64,000 bases of DNA, from NCBI GenBank assembly GCA_903813345.2, contig CAIIXF020000001.1:27032001-27096000 (forward strand). Direction: 5' to 3'. Below, piece after piece: positions 51,701 through 64,000 of this stretch. The translations under genes and the position numbers were made by a program. Within the stretch, counting starts at the first letter, position 1. Every line of letters starts with the position of its first letter. The notes beneath the pieces were generated by a model, which saw only the letters and a list, made by a program, of their open reading frames with translations, made no database searches and was not told the DNA's origin. Source of the DNA: Owenia fusiformis. Lineage: Eukaryota.

Positions 51701-53454
51701 CTTTTTTTTACATGCCTTGGGGTCCCCTACAAGAATCTAAAGTCAAATTGAATCTAGGTGTTTTGGACACAAATGGCCTTGGCCGTAGTACTAATTCGCC
51801 ATGCGTATATTATAAGGCAAACGATTCCCAACAACGAACAAAAACCGTTGAGTCGTTGTTAGAATCAATGGGGGAAAAGGTCATTGACTAATCCATATAT
51901 GCTTGATTCTTTAGATTTGGTGACAGAGTGACAACGTTTGGACAATTGAATGGCAAGGCAAATTCATTGGCTCGTGCGCTTAAATTCCAACTCGTCAACA
52001 ACAAGAAGGTTGATTTTTCCGGCGACAAACAGCACATTGTGGCTTTGTTTATGTCTGAATCCGATACCGCAGTAATGAGTGCATTGTCCGTGTTAAAACT
52101 TGGTGCTGCCTACACCGTAATGGACAAAATCCTTCCTCCAGATCGTATTAAGTATATCATCGATCAAGCCGGTGTTGCCGCCATTGTAGCAACTGAAGAC
52201 AACATTGAATACCTAAAAGCGGCTAATCTCGGGGATGACACATTGGTGCTTTCACTGTCCGATTTGCTCAATTATGCACAGAGTGCTAACCTTTCCGAAG
52301 ACAACATTCCAGATATCGATGGCCTTCCAGGGTTTGACGAGAAGCTTGGAATGTGTATTGTGATCTACACTAGTGGTTCAACAGGCTCCCCAAAGGGGGT
52401 GCGCATCAGCCACGCCTCATTGCTCAACAACTTTAATTACATTTGGGATGTTGTTAACTTAAAAGAAGGCGACGTAACATCAGCAATGACTTCGCTCATG
52501 TTTATTCCGCACGCAACGGATATATTCTGCCCTCTTTTACAAGGTCTCCCAGTGGTTATCGTTCCTAAGTCAATTAAGCAAGACCCCGAAGAATTGATAG
52601 AGCTCTTGGACAGAGAAAACGTTTCTGTCATTCCTTTTATTGCACCTTCCTTATTGGACGTTATTCTGCAGTTCGTTCAGATGTTTGATGATCCGAAAAT
52701 ACAGACATTAAGATTTGCTAATGTAGGCGGAGAGGCTGTCCCCACTCAGATTGTTCACGATTTTTACGATTACTTCAACGAGGGAGTTGTTCTTGTTGAT
52801 AGCTGGGGCTTGACAGAGACTAGTAATGATGCTACTTGGATGGAGTTTAGAGGAAAGAAAGATATCGCCGAAGGAGTGTTTGATGAAGGCGTCAGCATTG
52901 GAGTCCCTCTGCATAACACCATTGCCTATATTGTCAATGAAAAGGGAGAAGCAGTGTCACATGGTGAAGTGGGGGAGCTCTGTATCAGCGGCGTTTGCGT
53001 CTCTCCCGGGTATATGGACAAAGAGAATGCCTTTTCATTTGTGCCAAACACGCTAAGAAAACAGAGTGGTCACGAAACCCTTTTCAAAACTGGCGACTTT
53101 GCAAAGATCAAGAACGGGCGACTGGTGTACTGTGGTCGGAGGGATCAGATGGTAAAAATACGAGGTTACCGAGTAAACATAAGCGAGATAGAAACTGCCA
53201 TTAACAAGCTTGATTTTATTGAAAAAGTTGCTGTTTTACCCGTCAAGAGGTCAGAAACGGACGTATACCTCGTTGGATTCTACTCATGTCGGCCCGGGAA
53301 ATCAGCAGAGGCGAACGATATCAGAAAAGCGTGCGAGGCTTCCCTTACACCATACATGATTCCAGAGAGATTTGTCAAACTTGACGAAATGCCGCTCAAA
53401 GAGGCTAGTGCCAAAACAGACAGGAATGCTCTCAAACAGCTTTTAGGAAAGTAA
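45768..53454 (+). CDS. Stand-alone Ebony-like NRPS adenylation-domain protein, 572 aa; coding exons 45768-45946 and 51915-53454
   Basis: Phase-2 join KVAIR-FGDRVTTFGQLNGKANSLAR; LKLGAAYTVMD, YTSGSTGSPKGV, GGE, WGLTE, IGVPLHNT, GELCISG, LFKTGD, GRRDQMVKIRGYRV, LTPYMIP, AKTDR; Ebony-like LSIMEG and FYDYFNEGV. Confidence 0.92.
45980..46315. mobile_element. Transib-like MITE containing a nested Ginger-like MITE
   Basis: 28-bp TIR CACGGTGACCAAGAGTTAACAGTGCAAA; TSD TCATT at 45975-45979 and 46316-46320. Confidence 0.85.
49137..50045. mobile_element. Nested MITE, unclassified
   Basis: TIR GACGTGTCGCAAAAAG/CTTTTTGCGACACGTC, flanked by ATA on both sides. Confidence 0.75.
50270..50905. mobile_element. 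636-bp TGT...ACA element with 5-bp TSD, copy 2
   Basis: Colinear with 34885-35512; TSD ATTCA; the empty site is visible in the opposite TIR arm near 47455. Confidence 0.9.
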
Positions 53455-54054: not shown

Positions 54055-56892
54055 TATTGTATTGTATTGTATATTTATTGCCTCATTTATATGAGAGAAT
54101 ACATTTTAGTATACATATGGTTTACATATAAAATATAAAATACAAGGATAAGATTAAATTATGTGATAAAAAAGTTGTTGTTTTGGAAAACATAAAAATA
54201 AAGTGATAGAGAAATTATGTGTCAAGCAGAGCCAACAGGTTGGCTCTGTGATTGTACATTTTGTGTACACATGATGAAACAATTATTAACGTCTCACATG
54301 AAACATCTGAGAGACCTAAAACTTTCTTCATAATAACACCCATACTGTCACCACGACAGCCAAGGGCTTCAAATATGTTATGCCTATATGGTTCATACAT
54401 AGGGCATCTTAATATAAAATGTTCAATTGTTTCAGTTTCACAGAGGATACACAATATACATCGTTTTGAACCATTGAAGTTGTTCGTATTTAATACATGG
54501 GCGTTACATATCAATTGCATCATAGTTTTACACTGGCTTTGACATTTAGGATATTTCTGACAAATCAACCACCATATGCAAGGTTTTAAGTCTGTGACAT
54601 AGTCACGTAGGTATAAAAGTTTGCCATAACATGAGCATTGCAAGAAAAATTGCTTGACCTCGACGGATCTTACAGCATTGACAATTTGCAGTCTCCATGA
54701 CCTCTTCGACGGAAGATATCCAGAGTCCAGCGCATTTTACATTTTAACCAGATTTTCAATTCCTAGCATTTTGGTCTTAAGGAAAATGCGCCGGAGAGGA
54801 GAGAAAATATCGGCATGGTTGTCATAAGTGACATGAAACATCTTTACTAACCGTGTTATAGTTATATCCCTGTAAATATTATTAAACCTAAGTAAACTCC
54901 AGAGATACATCATCTGCAACACTGTAATATAGCCGTCTATTGACAACCATCCCAACGGCATCGTTGCACTAGGATTGGCTGAGGTTTTTGGGAAAAATTG
55001 GATACGTTTGCCAATCTCCCTATGAGTCAATTCAAGCTTTTCAACATCTGAGGGCTTGGTAATTTATAACTGGTGCCCCAAACAGCATGGTTGGAATAGA
55101 AAAGGCCCAGTACAGTTTTGATGCTGTTAAGGGTGACAAACCACCTGTTTTGTGCCCCAGTCCCAAAAGTGAGCAGAATTTTCGCTTACCACTAGTGCAG
55201 CGATCATTAACATATTGTGAGATATCATTTTTACTAGATATTGGAATACCAACATGAACAGTGAAATTGACCTTTGGAATTCTCGTGTCACCTATCTTGA
55301 GGACGACATGACCTTTAACACTTGAATCAGTGACCATATCATTAAATGTCAGAAAGTTACATTTCGCTGGATGGATTTCATATCGCCATCTTCTACTATG
55401 TTCAAAGGCAGTGTTTAACATAAGTTGCATATCCTTTTGATTTGTGGCAATAATGGTCATGTCGTCCGCATAAGAAGGACATACACAATTTACATCATCA
55501 ATGTGGCCACCTATATTCATTTCACATAGATCCTGAATAAGGTCAGCCATGTACAACTGATAAAATAGCATAGATAGGACACCCCCTTGGTGGACGCCCT
55601 GCATGACATTAAAAGGTTTAGAAAGTGTATTTGAACTTCCTACACGAACGGCACATTCATATTTATGGTAATTATCATAAAGCATACGCCACAGTTTGCC
55701 TGACCATCAATCCATCTAACCAAACGGTGTCAAATGCTTTTCTAATATCTAATGTGGCTAATATTACATTTCTATGCTTTTCGACATTGTGGGCAATGGT
55801 TTCCTGAACTAAAAGGGAAGTATGAACAGCAGAGCAATGACTCTGAGAAGCACCTTGTAAGTTAGGCATAATATTTTTTGCAAGGGATCCAATTCTTTTT
55901 AACACAATATGATCGTACACTTTACGCAACATGTTCATCAGAGTGATGCCTCTGGAATTGTCTTTATTACAAGGATCTTTATTTCCTGCCTTTAGTATAG
56001 GTATCAGTATACCAAACCTAAAATTCATGGGAGTGTATTCGTTTAACATGGTTGCATTAAAAAGGGTACATATGATCGAAATTACAGTGTCATTGCTATA
56101 TTTTAAATGTTCGGCACATATCGTATCCGATCCACATGCACGATTATTATGCAACCGTGATATGGCATTACTCACTTCACTATCCTGAAATGGTTCATCA
56201 AAGAAAGTATTATCTTCAAAATATGATGTTTGCTTAATATGCATAATTTCATTTTCAATTTCACACTTGGCATGGCTGTGAAAATGAGGCTTATCAGAAG
56301 GGGTTGCCAAACGAGCAAAGTGAGTGCGCCATTCATCCCTTATTCCAGCCTCGTCACTTACGATGACGTCATTATCAGATTTAATTGGAGACAGACGCCT
56401 AGAAGCCTTATTTCGGCTCTTATTGAGAAGATGCCAATAGTAACGCTGATCAAGTGATTCTGACCTGTATAGACGATTAAGCTCATTTTGTTCATACATA
56501 AACTCACTACATCTTAAACATTTTCTAAAAGCACATTTGGCAGATTTATATTGGGCCCTAATTACATTATCCGCATTTCGAGGTCGACCAGCCGACACCC
56601 ACTCACGCCATCTTTTCTTCTTTAACTTTACTAATCTGGTTAATTCATCATTCCAGAATGGCTTTACATGCTTTGAGAACTTCTTAATGGGGATATGTGC
56701 ATTAGAGCATTCAATCAGGCCATTTACCAGTTTCAAGATATAACTATCAATTTGGCAGTTTTCCAAATTATTTACACCAATTAACCGTAAATCATTCAGA
56801 ATGCCCTTACATTGCAAATCAAGAGATGATGTGTACGTTGATGCCCGGGGATAACACGAAATAAGCGAAAAACTGTTGAGTATTAAATTCAA
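54055..56892 (-). mobile_element. 5'-truncated LINE (RTE-X-like; clade tentative) with RT and C-terminal CCHC
   Basis: SRGITL, LDIRKAFDTVW, GVHQGGVLS, YADD, C..C..ETIEHFILRCP; at least two frameshifts and one stop; 3' AATAAA plus (ACAAT)n tail; no APE domain retained. Confidence 0.9.
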
Positions 56893-57619
56893 AACAACAC
56901 AAAATTTAGTAATTTGTTTACTTTTGTGTAATCGGCATGGTCTACATTGCCTAACGACATCGGGGTATATAGATGTAACCTACACACGATCATAAAAAGC
57001 CAATTGAGCATTGGAAACCACCTAATATGTTCTACTCAAGCCATAATAATGTATATTGAATTTGCGGTTACGCAAAAAATCGATGGACCGTAACGCGAAC
57101 CTCGTTCAAATATGTATCCCCGATTCGTTGTTATTAATTTATTTTTTAAATTGTGAGACCGAATAGGCTGGTTCCTCCTTGCGTGCTATAGGAGGCGTCG
57201 GGAGTCATACAGTATGGTAACGATCACCCACCAAGGGCAGTAGTGGAAAGACAAGAATCGGTACCAGCATGGTTGTGTTGAAACTGAAGAGACTTGCGAT
57301 CGAGAATCTCGTGCCATTCGCGTTTATCTAGAAAAGACTCGCTGCTTGATCGCCGACTCACAGATAATTCATTAGTTTAGGAAGAATTCGATTCATTTTA
57401 TTTTATTCGGGAACACTTAAAATTTGCCTTTTACAGGTTGAACGGGTCTTCAACTTTCTACAAACCTCTTTAATCTTGACACATAGCGATTGTTTCGAAA
57501 CACAGATAACGATGTATGTTTTAAACTCCTTCAACATCAGTAACAACTCTTCAAAATCCAAAAGGTCTTACTAGATGTGAATACATAGGTCTAGTTTCAA
57601 ACTAGGGTTAATCGCTATC

Positions 57620-59411
57620 ATGAAAGTCATTTTGTTTCTTTCCTGCCTTCTTCTGTCTTCGACTGGAACGATTTCACAAGATTTAGGTAAGTTCTCATCC
57701 TGACGTAATATTTTTACTAAATATGATCCTCGTAATATGACTATAAATAAGAAACTAGTTATAGGATAATGGTTTCATTGACAGAAGGGGTTGATTATGT
57801 TTTACAGATTGTGAATTGGAAGGCCATACTTGTAAAGATTCGACAGTAGAGACGTGCGAAGATGGCGAGTTCGACACCAGTTTTGAATGTGATGGATATT
57901 GGGCGATACAATGCTGTGTGTCAAACCGGCCCCCTACACAACCCCCGGTGCCATCCACAACTGAGCCCACCACTCTTCCTGTAGTCTCACAGTCAGCAGG
58001 GTCTACGCTATCACCTACGAACACCACACAACCATTATATGGAGGTATGTCATCCCGGGTGTGTCATATATTGATGGCGTACAATATTACTATTTTTTCT
58101 AATTTTTTTAAGTCCATTTATTTCGCATGCCAGTTCGATCTGTTTAAAATAGTATTACTCAGATTTAACTCTCAATTACTGATGATCATGTTGATACCCT
58201 ATTATTGTTTGAAAATAGATTGTGGTCGACGACAGGTAGAAAGCAGTCAGATAACCAATGGGAGAGAAGCAACACCACATAGCTGGCCATGGCAAGCTTC
58301 TCTACGTACGGCCAATGGTGCTACACACAACTGTGGAGCTGTACTTATTTCAGATCGATGGGTCCTAACCGCCGCACATTGCATCAACTCGTAGGTGGTC
58401 ATTTTCACTTGGATACCTTGATTATTCCCTCCACCACACGATATTTGTTACTTTGACATTTTGCCTGTCGCTAATTCTCTCTCGAAAGTCCATGATGAAA
58501 CCAATAGAGACAAAATATCTAGAACTGAAAGAATAATTAGGATAACTCTTGAAAGATAAGTGTTAGGATAACTCTGGTCCTAAACTGAAAAGCGTTCATG
58601 TTCATAACGGTCAAAAATGACTGCGTATACACAGCTGACCAGCCATTCCAATTTTAGAAAGCTTTTGCTCAAAGACCATGTGCTATTTAATATCATCATC
58701 TAACAAAGAACAACCTCAATGTGCTCACTTGTGTAAGCTTGCTTAAAATGACACAATTTTCAATGGGAAAAAGTTCCATGGAAACGCATATTGAATAGAA
58801 TGCCCCTTATTTTTTAGCATATATGACAATGTAGCTACATACCGTGTGGTTCTTGGTACCCACTATCAATTTGACTACAATGCAAACGAGTATTCTGCTC
58901 ATCTTGAGCAAATGATTCCAGTAAGTACAGTGTATATTGTAATTTTGTCGTCCCAAGTTGTAGTAAGTAGCCCCATACAACCTTTATACATTATCTAGTA
59001 GTGGCATTTCGGAAGCTAGCTCAATTTAAGAACCAATTTTGCACGACTTGATAGCTGAAGTTATTCTATTAAAAAGGCGTTCACATGCAAAATGGCACCA
59101 CCTGCCATTTTTTACAGACACCGAACACCAGCCGTAACACCAATTATCGTCGAACACAGTCCACAAAAAGTTGGAAACTATAACAAAATATCACCACTTG
59201 TGGTGGTGACATAAGTTCTTGATAAGTTATATTTTACAGCACCATCTCTATGATCAAGAGGGCCCAGGGTTTCCTTATGATATAGCGCTGTTAAAACTTG
59301 ATCTACCGGTTCCGTTCAACCGATATATACAGCCAGTATGTCTTCCCCTAGAAGGCGAGGAGTTCACAACTCAAGATGAATGCTTCCTAACTGGTTGGGG
59401 GGATACAAGAG
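57620..59411 (+). CDS. Secreted trypsin-family (S1A) serine protease, 3' part not in window; exons 57620-57686, 57808-58044, 58219-58390, 58818-58920, 59240-59411
   Basis: Signal peptide, six-Cys module, P/T linker, [43 protein letters not shown]; phases consistent; GDSGGP absent from the window. Confidence 0.92.
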
Positions 59412-60242
59412 GTACAAATTGTAGCAATGCATTAATATTATTGATAATATATTAAATGATATTGTTTAGTACTTGTATAATTTTTGTCAATTTTTTGCCG
59501 TTTGTTTTTCGAATGAATAATTCACTTTCACAGTTTCAGAAGTATAGTGGGAGAGTAGTATACGGCGGGCCTTTCGACCCCCTACCGGCACCGGTACTTA
59601 CTGTTCCACGTTCCAAAATTATAGATATTTTTGGGTATCTTGAGTTATTTAAGAATATTTTTTAAATTGTCACTGTTGATCAATTTCTGCTTACTTTTTT
59701 CACCAAACGATCACTTGATTCTTACTCCCGGGTCATTTTAGAGTATTTTTTCAATCTTCACGCTTGAGTGATTTTGGATGATTTCTGGAGTTTGAGGTAT
59801 TTTATCAACAAATGGACACTGTATTCTTACTCCCGAGTAATTTTAGAGCATTTTTACAATCTTCACGCTTGAGTGATTTTGGGTGATTTCTGGAGTTTGA
59901 GGCATTCTTTCACCAAATGATCACTTGATTCTTACTCCTAAGTCATTTAAGAGTATTTTTCAGTCGTCATGGTTGAGTGATTTCGGTTACGCTTGATCGA
60001 TTTCTGCTAATTTTTGGAGTTTAAGGCATTTTCACAAAATAGACACCCACCCACTATACAAAATAACACGCTTTAATAGGCATCTGTTAATTTAACATGC
60101 CACTGATAAAAATATAAACCCCTACTAGATAAATAAATAAAAAAATGCTAACATTAACAGTTTTACAGCAGAACATTTTCGACCAATCAAAGTGTATATG
60201 CAAATGAGCTGCTGAACCATTGCACCTGCACATGCCACTACC

Positions 60243-60815
60243 ACCGGAAGTGACGTCATAGGTCACGTGCACCGGAAGTGACGTCATAGATCACGTGGTA
60301 AGATGATGCACCGGAAGTGGAAGTGACGTCATAGGTCACATGGTTACTGATATAACTGGTCAAAGGTTTCTGATAATTGATAAGAGAGAGATAATAAACT
60401 GATAAGACAGTGAAAAAGATAACTACCATGGTTTCTGATATAACTGGTCAAAGGTTACTGATAATTGATAAGAGAGAGCTCAATTGATAAGATAATCAAA
60501 CAAACACTGTTAAGGTAACCTGGTGACTATGTGATAAGTTATCTTGTCTACTTCATGGATGTTTCATGGTTATAGGTCAAAGGTGGATAACAAACTGATG
60601 AAACAGTAAAAAAGATAACTGCAGAACCATTTTAACCAGACGGGTTTCAACTTGCAGAATTATGTTAACCGATCCCAGTACAGTATGTTTCAACCAATCA
60701 GGTTTTGAGATGCGATCATTTTAACCAATAAGGGATAATATGCTTGGACTTTGTTAACCAATCGTGGTACAGTATATTTTCATCCAATCAGATATAAGAA
60801 AATCGACCAATAGGA
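60243..60815. promoter_or_regulatory. Dense transcription-factor site array (duplicated at about 62503-63075)
   Basis: Repeated CCGGAAGT (ETS), TGACGTCA (CRE) and CACGTG (E-box), then many GATA(A) sites, then spaced AACCAAT boxes. Confidence 0.55.
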
Positions 60816-60876
60816 GAATATTTGTACAATTTAACCAGTTCAGACAGGTATTGAAGTTTTTTAACCAAGAATGTAC

Positions 60877-61612
60877 CCTTCTCATTGTATGTCTTTGTCT
60901 GATTTTGTTATTTCTCTCAATCACCTTGAGTATCTTTTGGATCTAAAACAAATAATTGAAGACTTTCTATTCACATGAAAAAGGTGTTATACTTTCATTT
61001 TGAATAAAAGTATTTTATACTGAGCTTAATTCTATAAATAATTCAATAATATACCTTTCTATACTGTTGTTGAAGTATAGCTCTTTCCTTTGACAACATG
61101 CTTGAGACCTAAAACCAAACGAATAAATGTTAAGATTCTAACAAATCAATACATATTTAGAATATTATTATTATTTAAAACAAAATATTTAACATTCATG
61201 TTTTATGAAGTAAATAAATATTTTTCTTACTTCTGCCCTGGTAACATATTGTCCACCGCAACTGGTACTTGGACCATCTGTGACTCCATTCTAAATAAAT
61301 AAATAAATAAATGAAAAATAAGTCTGGAAGAAATCCCTTAAAGTTAGTTTTGTGGATTACCCTGTAAAATATCTTACAGCCATATTTTAAATTAAGTCAT
61401 CATTTTTCTGAAAAAGCTTGTATACTTTTAATTTTTATTGTTTTCATTGAATAAATTTTAAGAATGTAACAAATCAATACATATTGGGAATGTTATTTAA
61501 AATAAAATATGTTACAATTGTATTTTATGAAGTATATTAATAATTTTCTTACTTCTATTCTTGTTAAAGATGTATTGGAACCATGCAATCTTAGTCCACT
61601 TCTGTTCTCAAT
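60877..61612 (-). CDS. Fragment of an unknown spliced gene: four phase-0 micro-exons 61553-61612, 61231-61290, 61055-61108, 60877-60942
   Basis: Each has a TTTAG acceptor and GT donor; lengths 60/60/54/66 nt; joined frame open: IENRSGLRLHGSNTSLTRIE-NGVTDGPSTSCGGQYVTRAE-VSSMLSKERAILQQQYRK-IQKILKVIERNNKIRQRHTMRR. Confidence 0.6.
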
Positions 61613-62278
61613 CTAAATAAATATAAAGTAAAATTATAGATATTTTTGGGTATCTTGAGTTATTTAAGAATATTTTTTAAATTGTCACTGTTGATCAATT
61701 TCTGCTTACTTTTTTCACCAAACGATCACTTGATTCTTACTCCCGGGTCATTTTAGAGTATTTTTTCAATCTTCACGCTTGAGTGATTTTGGATGATTTC
61801 TGGAGTTTGAGGTATTTTATCAACAAATGGACACTGTATTCTTACTCCCGAGTAATTTTAGAGCATTTTTACAATCTTCACGCTTGAGTGATTTTGGGTG
61901 ATTTCTGGAGTTTGAGGCATTCTTTCACCAAATGATCACTTGATTCTTACTCCTAAGTCATTTAAGAGTATTTTTTCAGTCGTCATGGTTGAGTGATTTC
62001 GGTTACGCTTGATCGATTTCTGCTAATTTTTGGAGTTTAAGGCATTTTCACAAAATAGACACCCACCCACTATACAAAATAACACGCTTTAATAGGCATC
62101 TGTTAATTTAACATGCCACTGATAAAAATATAAACCCCTACTAGATAAATAAATAAAAAAATGCTAACATTAACAGTTTTACAGCAGAACATTTTCGACC
62201 AATCAAAGTGTATATGCAAATGAGCTGCTGAACCATTTCAATCAATCAGATCAGATTATTGCACTCTTTGACCCCACA

Positions 62279-62477
62279 ACCGCCGCCGCCACCACCGCCG
62301 CCACAACCGCCGCCGCCACCACCACCGCCGCCACCACCACCGCCACCACCGCCGCCGCCACCACCGCCGCCACAACCGCCGCCACCACCACCGCCACCAC
62401 CGCCGCCGCCACCACCGCCGCCGCCACCACCGCCGCCGCCACCACCGCCGCCACCACCGCCGCCACCACCACCGCCA
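62279..62477. repeat. (CCG/CCA)n microsatellite; second tract at about 63547-63642
   Basis: Mixed CCG and CCA triplets; both tracts follow CAGATCAGATTATTGCACTCTT. Confidence 0.95.
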
Positions 62478-63594
62478 ACCTGCACCTGCACATGCCACTA
62501 CCACCGGAAGTGACGTCATAGGTCACGTGCACCGGAAGTGACGTCATAGATCACGTGGTAAGATGATGCACCGGAAGTGGAAGTGACGTCATAGGTCACA
62601 TGGTTACTGATATAACTGGTCAAAGGTTTCTGATAATTGATAAGAGAGAGATAATAAACTGATAAGACAGTGAAAAAGATAACTACCATGGTTTCTGATA
62701 TAACTGGTCAAAGGTTACTGATAATTGATAAGAGAGAGCTCAATTGATAAGATAATCAAACAAACACTGTTAAGGTAACCTGGTGACTATGTGATAAGTT
62801 ATCTTGTCTACTTCATGGATGTTTCATGGTTATAGGTCAAAGGTGGATAACAAACTGATGAAACAGTAAAAAAGATAACTGCAGAACCATTTTAACCAGA
62901 CGGGTTTCAACTTGCAGAATTATGTTAACCGATCCCAGTACAGTATGTTTCAACCAATCAGGTTTTGAGATGCGATCATTTTAACCAATAAGGGATAATA
63001 TGCTTGGACTATGTTAACCAATCGTGGTACAGTATATTTTCATCCAATCAGATATAAGAAAATCGACCAATAGGAGAATATTTGTACAATTTAACCAGTT
63101 CAGACAGGTATTGAAGTTTTTTAACCAAGAGTCAATTTAAAGCATTTTTCCAATCTTCACGCTTGAGTGATTTTGGATGATTTCTGGAGTTTGAGATATT
63201 TTTTCACCAAACGGTCACTTGATTCTTACTCCTGGGTCATTTTAAAGTATTTTTTAAAGTGTCACGTTTGGGCTATTTCAGTCACTGTTGATCGATTTCT
63301 GCTAATTTTTGGAGTTTAAGGCATTTTCACAAAATAGACACCCACCCACTATACAAAATAACACGCTTTAATAGGCATCTGTTAATTTAACATGCCACTG
63401 ATAAAAATATAAACCCCTACAAGATAAATAAAAAGTGCTAACGTTAACAGTTTTACAGCAGAACATTTTCGACAAATCAAAGTGTATATGCAAATGAGCC
63501 GCAGAACCATTTCAATCAATCAGATCAGATTATTGCACTCTTCGACCCCACCACCGCCGCCGCCACCGCCGCCGCCGCCGCCACCGCCGCCGCC

Positions 63595-63642
<48 letters not shown>

Positions 63643-63749
63643 TTTTGTGCCTTTATCATATTTTATTCAACAGAGGGATGTATTAAAACTATATAAGTGA
63701 AAAGCAGGCTTGATTCATTCATTCAGCGCAACCTCATCTACATGACAAC

Positions 63750-64000
63750 ATGGATTATATTTGCTCAGTGTGTTCTGGCACATTTGCCAGGAAGGATATT
63801 CTTCTGAGACATATGAGAAACATTCACAAAAAAGATGAGACTAACTTCGATCTCGACTCACCTATACAGTTCAGGCATCCATTTACTAAAATTGTTGCAG
63901 GTCCTACTGGATGTGGAAAGACAACCTATGTTGTCGACCTTATTGATAGAGCCGAACAATTAATCAATCCACCACCACAAAGAATAGTATGGTTCTTCAA
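63750..64000 (+). CDS. Polinton-type DNA-packaging ATPase (A32/FtsK-like) with N-terminal C2H2 zinc finger; truncated by the window end
   Basis: MDYICSVCSGTFARKDILLRHMRNIHKKDETNFDLDSPIQFRHPFTKIVAGPTGCGKTTYVVDLIDRAEQLINPPPQRIVWFF. Not in the supplied ORF track because no stop codon falls in the window. Confidence 0.85.
   Translation, partial: MDYICSVCSGTFARKDILLRHMRNIHKKDETNFDLDSPIQFRHPFTKIVAGPTGCGKTTYVVDLIDRAEQLINPPPQRIVWFF

Follow-up and report, generated by a model that had tools for sequence, protein, structure and literature searches.

What kind of element lies within a serine protease gene of the annelid Owenia fusiformis, and why does it carry only two genes? The window is the whole 64,000-nucleotide stretch analysed (assembly GCA_903813345.2, contig CAIIXF020000001.1, positions 27,032,001 to 27,096,000), and the element begins near its right-hand side and runs past its end. 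Coordinates above 64000 carry the window count past the window end (position in stretch L011 plus 59000). A sequence-only reading had taken the element for the left end of an endogenous Polinton/Maverick virus that interrupts the protease gene. The structure of the element and its non-autonomy are practically certain. We lean slightly towards reading it as a packaging satellite, a two-gene mini-Polinton that depends on a helper and of which this copy integrated recently.

The element has the ends of a Polinton. It extends from 59554 to 66961 (7,408 bp; L011:554-7961). The left terminus AGTAGTATACGGCGGG starts 142 bp after the end of protease exon 5 (59411), as the sequence-only reading had placed it (about 140 bp past the TGWG exon), and the 12-mer that opens it is unique in the window. 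The right end forecast by the same reading was found in full, with CCCGCCGTATACTACT at 66961, then TGGGAG, the same 6 bp as at 59548-59553, and the GDSGGP exon further on. The termini, AGTAGT...ACTACT, are of the (AGT)2 type, one of the two forms, (AG)3 or (AGT)2, by which Polintons are recognized, and the 6-bp target-site duplication is perfect. A search of the genome with the 62-bp terminus gives 38 matches, and perfect 6-bp duplications flank 14 of 14 elements that have both ends inside the stretches examined, so the ends are not due to chance.

The inverted repeats are long and nearly identical, but the left one is rearranged. Long terminal inverted repeats are typical of Polintons, and inverted arms of 1,169 bp are present at 99% identity, but the left terminus itself matches the right end over its first 26 bp only, and the long arm begins at 62476. 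It is preceded by 2.9 kb that consist of a terminus variant (intact on other copies), duplicated arm pieces that are 99.7-99.9% identical, and an AT-rich block. The near-identical repeats and the youth of the insertion were both read correctly from the sequence: the repeat pairs match at 99.7% and 99.85%, and the two arms, if a triplet tract is set aside, align over 1,065 bp with no mismatch and one gap. We infer that the left arm was rearranged by recombination or template switching during replication. Arms rearranged in a similar way are found in other copies, as are foldbacks and a head-to-head dimer. The dimer (L016:2347 to L017:6082) is 13.7 kb long and has one outer pair of ends and the duplication CATTGC. 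An assembly join at about 59554, which had been considered as an alternative, is contradicted by the lack of any N in the 50 kb from 59001, the exact duplication, and the in-phase protease exons. A consensus error may be present in the left-arm duplication or at the ATPase frameshift described below.

The host gene is not disrupted. It encodes a trypsin-family serine protease in seven exons on the plus strand (1,065 nucleotides, 354 amino acids), each of its six introns has GT-AG ends and keeps the phase, and the catalytic His, Asp, and Ser motifs are all present. The protease does not stop after the TGWG exon, as had been thought, and disruption is ruled out by the intact reading frame. The intronic position suggested earlier was correct: the element lies in intron 5, whose first base is 59412 and whose length is 8,386 bp with the element and 972 bp without it. 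The GT-AG, in-phase introns mean that the insert separates the His and Asp exons from the Ser exon in the DNA only, and the protease is probably spliced around it. A raw DNA run gave a depth of 0-1 on the single-copy flank, with no loose junction end among the rows shown, one RNA run had no reads on protease exons 6-7, and a contig run listed as RNA behaved like DNA. An intronic insertion is in itself ordinary. To the right of the element, intron 5 also contains a short, very high-copy repeat (L011:8633-8686) with depth in the thousands.

Table 1. Coordinates of the protease exons and of the parts of the element, in window count.
Feature	Position	Strand	Remarks
Protease exon 1	57620..57686	+	ATG, signal-peptide-like
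Protease exon 2	57808..58044	+	Cys-rich module and Thr/Pro-rich linker; no Pfam match
Protease exon 3	58219..58390	+	catalytic His, TAAHC; Pfam Trypsin E 7.8e-16
Protease exon 4	58818..58920	+	AG/GT ends, in phase
Protease exon 5	59240..59411	+	catalytic Asp, DIALL; TGWG
Left target-site duplication TGGGAG	59548..59553		matching right copy at L011:7962-7967, past window
In-window part of element	59554..64000	+	left terminus, arm pieces, ATPase start
Left terminus AGTAGTATACGGCGGG...	59554..59614	+	62-bp query 100% identical at 6 other places
Extra inner-arm copy with 105-bp tandem unit	59615..60221	+	99.7% to 61630-62237
Extra outer-arm copy	60221..60870	+	99.85% to 62481-63130
AT-rich low-copy block	60871..61629	.	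relatives at 4 other genomic sites
Second inner-arm copy	61630..62480	+	GCC/ACC triplet tract at its end
Left long arm of inverted repeat	62476..63644	+	1,169 bp
ATPase gene start	63750..64000	+	ATG, C2H2 finger, FtsK/A32-type core; continues past window
Small gene	65272-65667 (L011:6272-6667)		131 basic amino acids, intact; past window
Right inverted arm	65775-66961 (L011:6775-7961)		1,187 bp; past window
Protease exon 6	67798-67949 (L011:8798-8949)		past window end; GDSGGP in exons 6/7
Protease exon 7	68164-68325 (L011:9164-9325)		past window end; stop codon in exons 6/7 stretch

The element carries only two genes, a zinc-finger/packaging-type ATPase and a basic protein of 131 amino acids. 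Between its ends, open reading frames and tblastn matches revealed no protein-primed DNA polymerase B and no retroviral-like integrase, and neither major or minor capsid proteins nor an adenain protease were found there. All of these genes had been expected in the next 15-30 kb, but the element ends after 7.4 kb. The sequence-only reading had named missing core genes, or a missing inverted repeat, as evidence against itself; the core genes are absent between the ends, so half of this clause applies. The right end at 66961 and the missing core genes rule out a full-length virus downstream of the left end. Instead of an endogenous virus, the element is a non-autonomous miniature without polymerase, integrase, protease, or capsids.

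The ATPase is of the viral packaging type. Its Walker A motif (GPTGCGKT) is at 63900-63923. The frame had been called open, which is true up to the window end, but in this copy it shifts behind the core, after about codon 358 (near 64820, L011:5820), relative to sister copies. The first frame reaches L011:5928, and the helical C-terminal part is in a second frame (L011:5820-6176). Uninterrupted sister proteins have about 480 amino acids and consist of a C2H2 finger, the core, a disordered linker, a CxxC module, a helical bundle, and an acidic tail. In the predicted structure of a sister copy (predicted local distance difference test, pLDDT, 79) the core matches viral packaging ATPases. The best PDB fold match is the packaging NTPase B204 of Sulfolobus turreted icosahedral virus 2 (STIV2; E 8e-6), and the viral matches include IVa2, A32, and adintovirus FtsK proteins. 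An A32-like ATPase had been named from the sequence, and the FtsK/A32 type is upheld by fold, with Pfam matches below cut-off. For the C-terminal part, a search of the ESM Atlas gave zinc-finger leads under 0.9 only. Extended ATPases of this kind are common in public data (168 proteins at E<=1e-20), with named matches in molluscs and a sea anemone.

The two-gene layout is found throughout a family of close copies. There are 20 cassettes at 19 loci, with 86-100% amino acid identity, and they form two subfamilies that are 97% and 92% identical in nucleotide sequence to the window cassette (16 cassettes compared). The small gene lies within 3 kb of the ATPase in all 20, and none of the 20 has a capsid or HNH-type polymerase match within 7 kb. 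The ATPase frame is uninterrupted in 13, and the arms are 96-100% identical in 16 of the 17 elements measured.

The substitution pattern suggests that both genes are selected in the mini state, which we consider likely. Pairwise ratios of nonsynonymous to synonymous substitution rates (dN/dS) were computed by the Nei-Gojobori method. Between the two subfamilies the ratio for the ATPase is 0.20-0.23 in all six pairs (synonymous rate, dS, 0.17-0.20; Fisher p<1e-10), with regional values of 0.12 for the core and 0.07-0.11 for the finger, and for the small gene it is 0.16-0.19 in four of four pairs. At about 5% synonymous divergence or less, the ATPase ratio is 0.12-0.28 within subfamilies (three of three pairs) and 0.14-0.24 in the four pairs that include the window copy. 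An independent mini lineage has ratios of 0.26-0.31 for the ATPase and 0.15-0.38 for the small gene, in three of three pairs. One stranded RNA run of raw reads gives about 4x coverage of the small gene on a single strand. A trans-acting gene in a non-autonomous element is expected to drift unless it helps its own DNA, in cis or in the same infected cell.

The ends of the mini and its ATPase come from different Polintons. A full-length partner element (C5:3929-17338) is 13.4 kb long, has the duplication CAGAGC, and contains polymerase pieces, a standard ATPase of 221 amino acids, an integrase, a protease, a capsid, a small gene, and a penton; three more copies of its family are present in the genome. 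Partner and mini have the terminus and about 440 bp of arm in common at 86-87% identity. One of the four genomic sites related to the AT-rich block of the window element adjoins fragments of the partner family's polymerase and standard ATPase. In the small gene, 160 of the first 180 nucleotides are identical to the partner's, the match to the partner family covers the first 60-75 codons, and identity is at background level past codon 80. The ATPases are only 35% identical and fall in separate clades. The split between standard and extended ATPases has 100% support, and a tree that joins the mini and partner ATPases is rejected by the approximately unbiased (AU) test (p=2e-5). By all of these comparisons the mini is a chimera, with ends and the front half of the small gene from the partner family and an ATPase from another Polinton clade. 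A second lineage shows the same pattern, since the ends of L044 match another family with a standard ATPase (L080).

These results show how far the mini resembles a deletion derivative. Its ends are common to a full-length family, as in such derivatives. Its interior is not from the same family, apart from the front half of the small gene, and its remaining coding sequence has not decayed neutrally (dN/dS about 0.2). A collinear internal deletion of the partner is ruled out by the foreign ATPase together with this ratio. The mini could also have arisen by ordinary deletion from a full-length parent that was itself chimeric and is missing in the assembly, with both genes as passengers whose low dN/dS was inherited from that parent. 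Swapping of polymerase modules between Polintons has been published (in the portion of PMC10748475 available), and a 10.3-kb element without polymerase (L031/L052) joins a partner-type capsid module to an extended ATPase, making it a plausible intermediate. The ATPases that are broken or altered in 7 of the 20 family members, including the window copy, also fit passengers. However, the two-gene layout is identical in both subfamilies, the low ratios extend to copies whose synonymous divergence is about 5% or lower, the same gene pair is kept in five lineages, and no larger element with this family's ATPase is among the scored loci. Passenger genes are thus an unlikely explanation.

The two-gene layout is found in five divergent lineages (A, L025, L034/35, L043/44/50, and L084/85/89/98). 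The ends of four of them match a family that carries virion genes, while those of one match a polymerase-bearing family. The small proteins of four lineages have a PPG-type tail and those of the remaining one a similar RPYNIP tail; the tail is absent from all five capsid-bearing elements aligned. The lineage of L084, L085, L089, and L098 differs in the C-terminal domain of its zinc-finger ATPase, and its small protein contains a poly-Asp run that varies in length. A single origin of the minis is rejected for the ATPases and for the small proteins. One clade of mini ATPases is rejected at p=0.00025, or p=0.0012 without the long-branch lineage, in a 24-row tree with one long branch, with L079 left out and with groups named beforehand; one clade of small proteins is rejected at p=4e-45 (14 rows). 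An earlier ATPase tree, with 39 rows, was compatible with fewer origins. Nine minis that belong to four other lineages have ends with duplications, and six mini-like loci (L043, L076, L087, and L095-L097) have no duplication within the stretch examined.

Larger elements with an extended ATPase tend to have either polymerase or capsid genes. The locus counts rest on 89 of 267 candidates scored; 20 distant loci, 20 flanks or family copies, and 28 further stretches were inspected directly. Of 87 extended-ATPase loci, 45 have the small gene without a nearby capsid or HNH-type polymerase, 19 have only the polymerase, 19 have only the capsid, 2 have both, and 2 have neither. The two loci with both polymerase and capsid rule out the extended ATPase as a marker of satellites only. 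Ends with duplications were also found for three polymerase-ATPase-integrase elements (9.2-9.3 kb) and four capsid elements without polymerase (8-10 kb). The capsid-less elements (L056/L041, L038/L055, and L057/L046) have full ends, 6-bp duplications, polymerase, extended ATPase, and integrase, and one of them has its terminus in common with the two-gene mini L085. The polymerase-less elements (L031/L052, L032/L053, L036/L054, and L049/L058) have a capsid module, integrase, and extended ATPase. A polymerase-less element of 7,972 bp was confirmed. Together, the two classes suggest a complementing, multipartite system. The capsid, penton, and polymerase reading frames of the larger elements received no name from Pfam or PDB sequence searches, and their labels are based on size, the order of the genes, characteristic motifs, weak Peptidase_C5 matches, an rve match, and the database label F54H12.2-like, which we take to be a Polinton capsid. 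The polymerases fall into two classes (L093:4861-8724 and L030:5889-6527), of which the first has zinc fingers at the N-terminus together with an endonuclease VII-like domain and the second a weak DUF559-type nuclease match. They echo the HNH and VSR polymerase inserts of Polintons described in part of PMC10748475. A search of IMG/VR for relatives gave 60 pattern matches, none of which was confirmed.

The capsid-less elements also bear on what the two genes do. The genes might be selected for genome maintenance rather than packaging, with the ATPase binding the arms for excision, replication, or transcription, the small protein coating or shielding the DNA, and the elements spreading in the germline without particles. 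The capsid-less polymerase-integrase elements (19 of the 87 loci) keep the extended ATPase with dN/dS of 0.17-0.23 in three of three pairs, and C2H2 fingers are DNA-binding modules. However, capsid-less elements would keep the ATPase equally if they borrowed capsids, its core folds like viral packaging ATPases, and the small gene derives from a virion gene block. We therefore consider maintenance without particles to be rather unlikely.

Foldback elements related to the minis are also present. One (L077:2011-7030), together with six similar pairs, has two inverted copies of a small gene, homologous to that of the window element, and no ATPase. Others (L019, L027, and L029) have the ends of the window family and no genes. 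L019/L020 (C5:23701973-23710971) is a tandem duplication of 5.45 kb in which a foldback is copied along with its flanks, and could be either a segmental duplication or an assembly duplicate. One family copy (L059-L061, C2:22071536-22094653, duplication CACAAG) has reached 23 kb by nested insertions, including a retrotransposon-like frame of 1,755 amino acids. The palindromic foldbacks, the head-to-head dimer, and the duplicated arms resemble copy-back products, as would be produced if the minis were defective-interfering or host-tolerated antiviral elements whose proteins poison or outcompete the full-size virus. The tail present in minis and missing from the aligned capsid-bearing elements fits this as well. 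It is nevertheless improbable, as the copies are dispersed, young by arm identity, and decaying singly instead of being fixed at one locus, and selection acts between mobile copies.

A packaging satellite would account for the retention of these two genes. Like a satellite, the mini is without replication and virion functions and has a matching helper, which it presumably uses. The partner's protein-primed polymerase would copy the mini from the common ends, and its integrase would insert it. The extended ATPase, which has a helical domain besides two zinc-binding modules, would bind the mini's own arms and feed its DNA into borrowed capsids. The two genes alone would be kept by selection because the ATPase favours the mini's own DNA in this way. 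The small protein may be virion-internal and DNA-associated, given its basic composition, the position of the homologous gene between the penton and capsid genes, and a GxG motif that we take to be an adenain-type protease site; its partner-like front half would fit the partner's capsid and protease. The window copy would be decaying or complemented, because its ATPase is frameshifted and its left arm rearranged.

Several observations weigh against a packaging satellite. For the small protein, Pfam gives no significant match, the ESM Atlas none at all, and other species none that has a name, and it is poorly folded in prediction (pLDDT 61). The RNA run that covers the small gene has no reads on the ATPase. 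The ATPase pair of one lineage (dN/dS 0.42, p=0.11) and the small gene of the window copy compared to its sister (0.28, p=0.076) are not significant, and the pairs between subfamilies, having one branch in common, are not independent. Purifying selection could predate the reduction if the subfamilies had unsampled larger parents. At 2 of 87 loci, the extended ATPase is native to complete elements that have both polymerase and capsid. The ATPase is not required in cis, since many related elements are foldbacks that have spread with the small gene only or with no gene. The satellite role, with its particles and DNA binding, is predicted from the genes.

The mini is neither an autonomous Polinton nor a simple deletion derivative. 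Non-autonomous Polinton derivatives have reportedly been described by Kapitonov and Jurka in 2006 and in Repbase, and are said to have the ends of full-length families, mobilization in trans, and 6-bp duplications, as the mini does. The mini differs in that it is not collinear with its partner, has two selected genes, and has a layout found in five lineages. Phage satellites such as P4 and the phage-inducible chromosomal islands and Staphylococcus aureus pathogenicity islands (PICI/SaPI) are small and integrated, with helper-matched cis signals and packaging-related genes of their own but no full virion set. The mini resembles them in size, integration, helper-matched ends, packaging-related genes, and the lack of a full virion set, but it has an animal host, has no integrase or replicase of its own, and is only a putative redirector of packaging. 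Compared to its partner, it has an ATPase of about 480 amino acids with finger, CxxC, and helical extensions instead of about 220. Transpovirons and Tlr elements, as far as the available passages describe them, are also reduced relatives in the Polinton network without polymerase, but they have a helicase, and Tlr also has an integrase and capsids, while the mini has none of these. Autonomous Polintons/Mavericks (adintoviruses, Polintoviricetes) are similar to the mini in (AGT)2 termini, long inverted arms, and a perfect 6-bp duplication (passages of PMC8097293), in the packaging-type ATPase, and in a homolog of the small gene between the penton and capsid genes (position from part of PMC4028283). 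They differ in length, 15-25 kb according to a portion of PMC6431247 compared to 5-7 kb for minis, and in having the polymerase, integrase, protease, and capsids that minis lack.

Minis would be missed by published surveys because of size and core-gene filters. According to the parts available, elements below 10 kb were removed in one survey (PMC4028283), another admitted only elements with capsid genes and 10 kb of length (PMC11131425), and a third required all five core genes (PMC10748475). Polinton-related variants without polB appear in part of a preprint (bioRxiv 10.1101/2025.02.07.637071). No published description of ATPase-plus-small-gene minis was found in a search of mostly open literature without supplements or Repbase, and they are not described in passages of that preprint, PMC8097293, PMC4028283, PMC11131425, PMC10748475, PMC11161782, PMC6431247, PMC3014272, and PMC8502044. 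Non-autonomous Polintons as such are already known.

Two other features lie upstream in the window. A fragmented retrotransposon with reverse-transcriptase-like frames, presumably of the long interspersed nuclear element type, is just upstream of the protease gene (54215-56979, minus strand). An intronless frame of 515 amino acids (51907-53454, plus strand) encodes what we take from its motifs to be an adenylation domain (AMP-binding, similar to those of nonribosomal peptide synthetases), which is unusual in an animal.

The minis may point to packaging in animal Polintons. It is possible, though somewhat doubtful, that animal Polintons own a class of satellites analogous to P4 and PICI, with a packaging ATPase bearing DNA-recognition domains and a virion-internal protein. 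Such satellites would retarget to a new helper by acquiring its ends and the first half of its small gene, and would retain the satellite-type tail. An element that keeps only a packaging motor and a protein from the virion block, both selected, and that tracks the ends of its helper, is hard to explain without packaging. No virions of animal Polintons have been observed so far, according to part of PMC10748475, and mini DNA in particles would be a cheap marker for them. If the analogy is true, the minis, the polymerase-only elements, and the capsid-only elements would form a complementing multipartite community, and the minis would be indirect evidence that Polintons form particles in animals.

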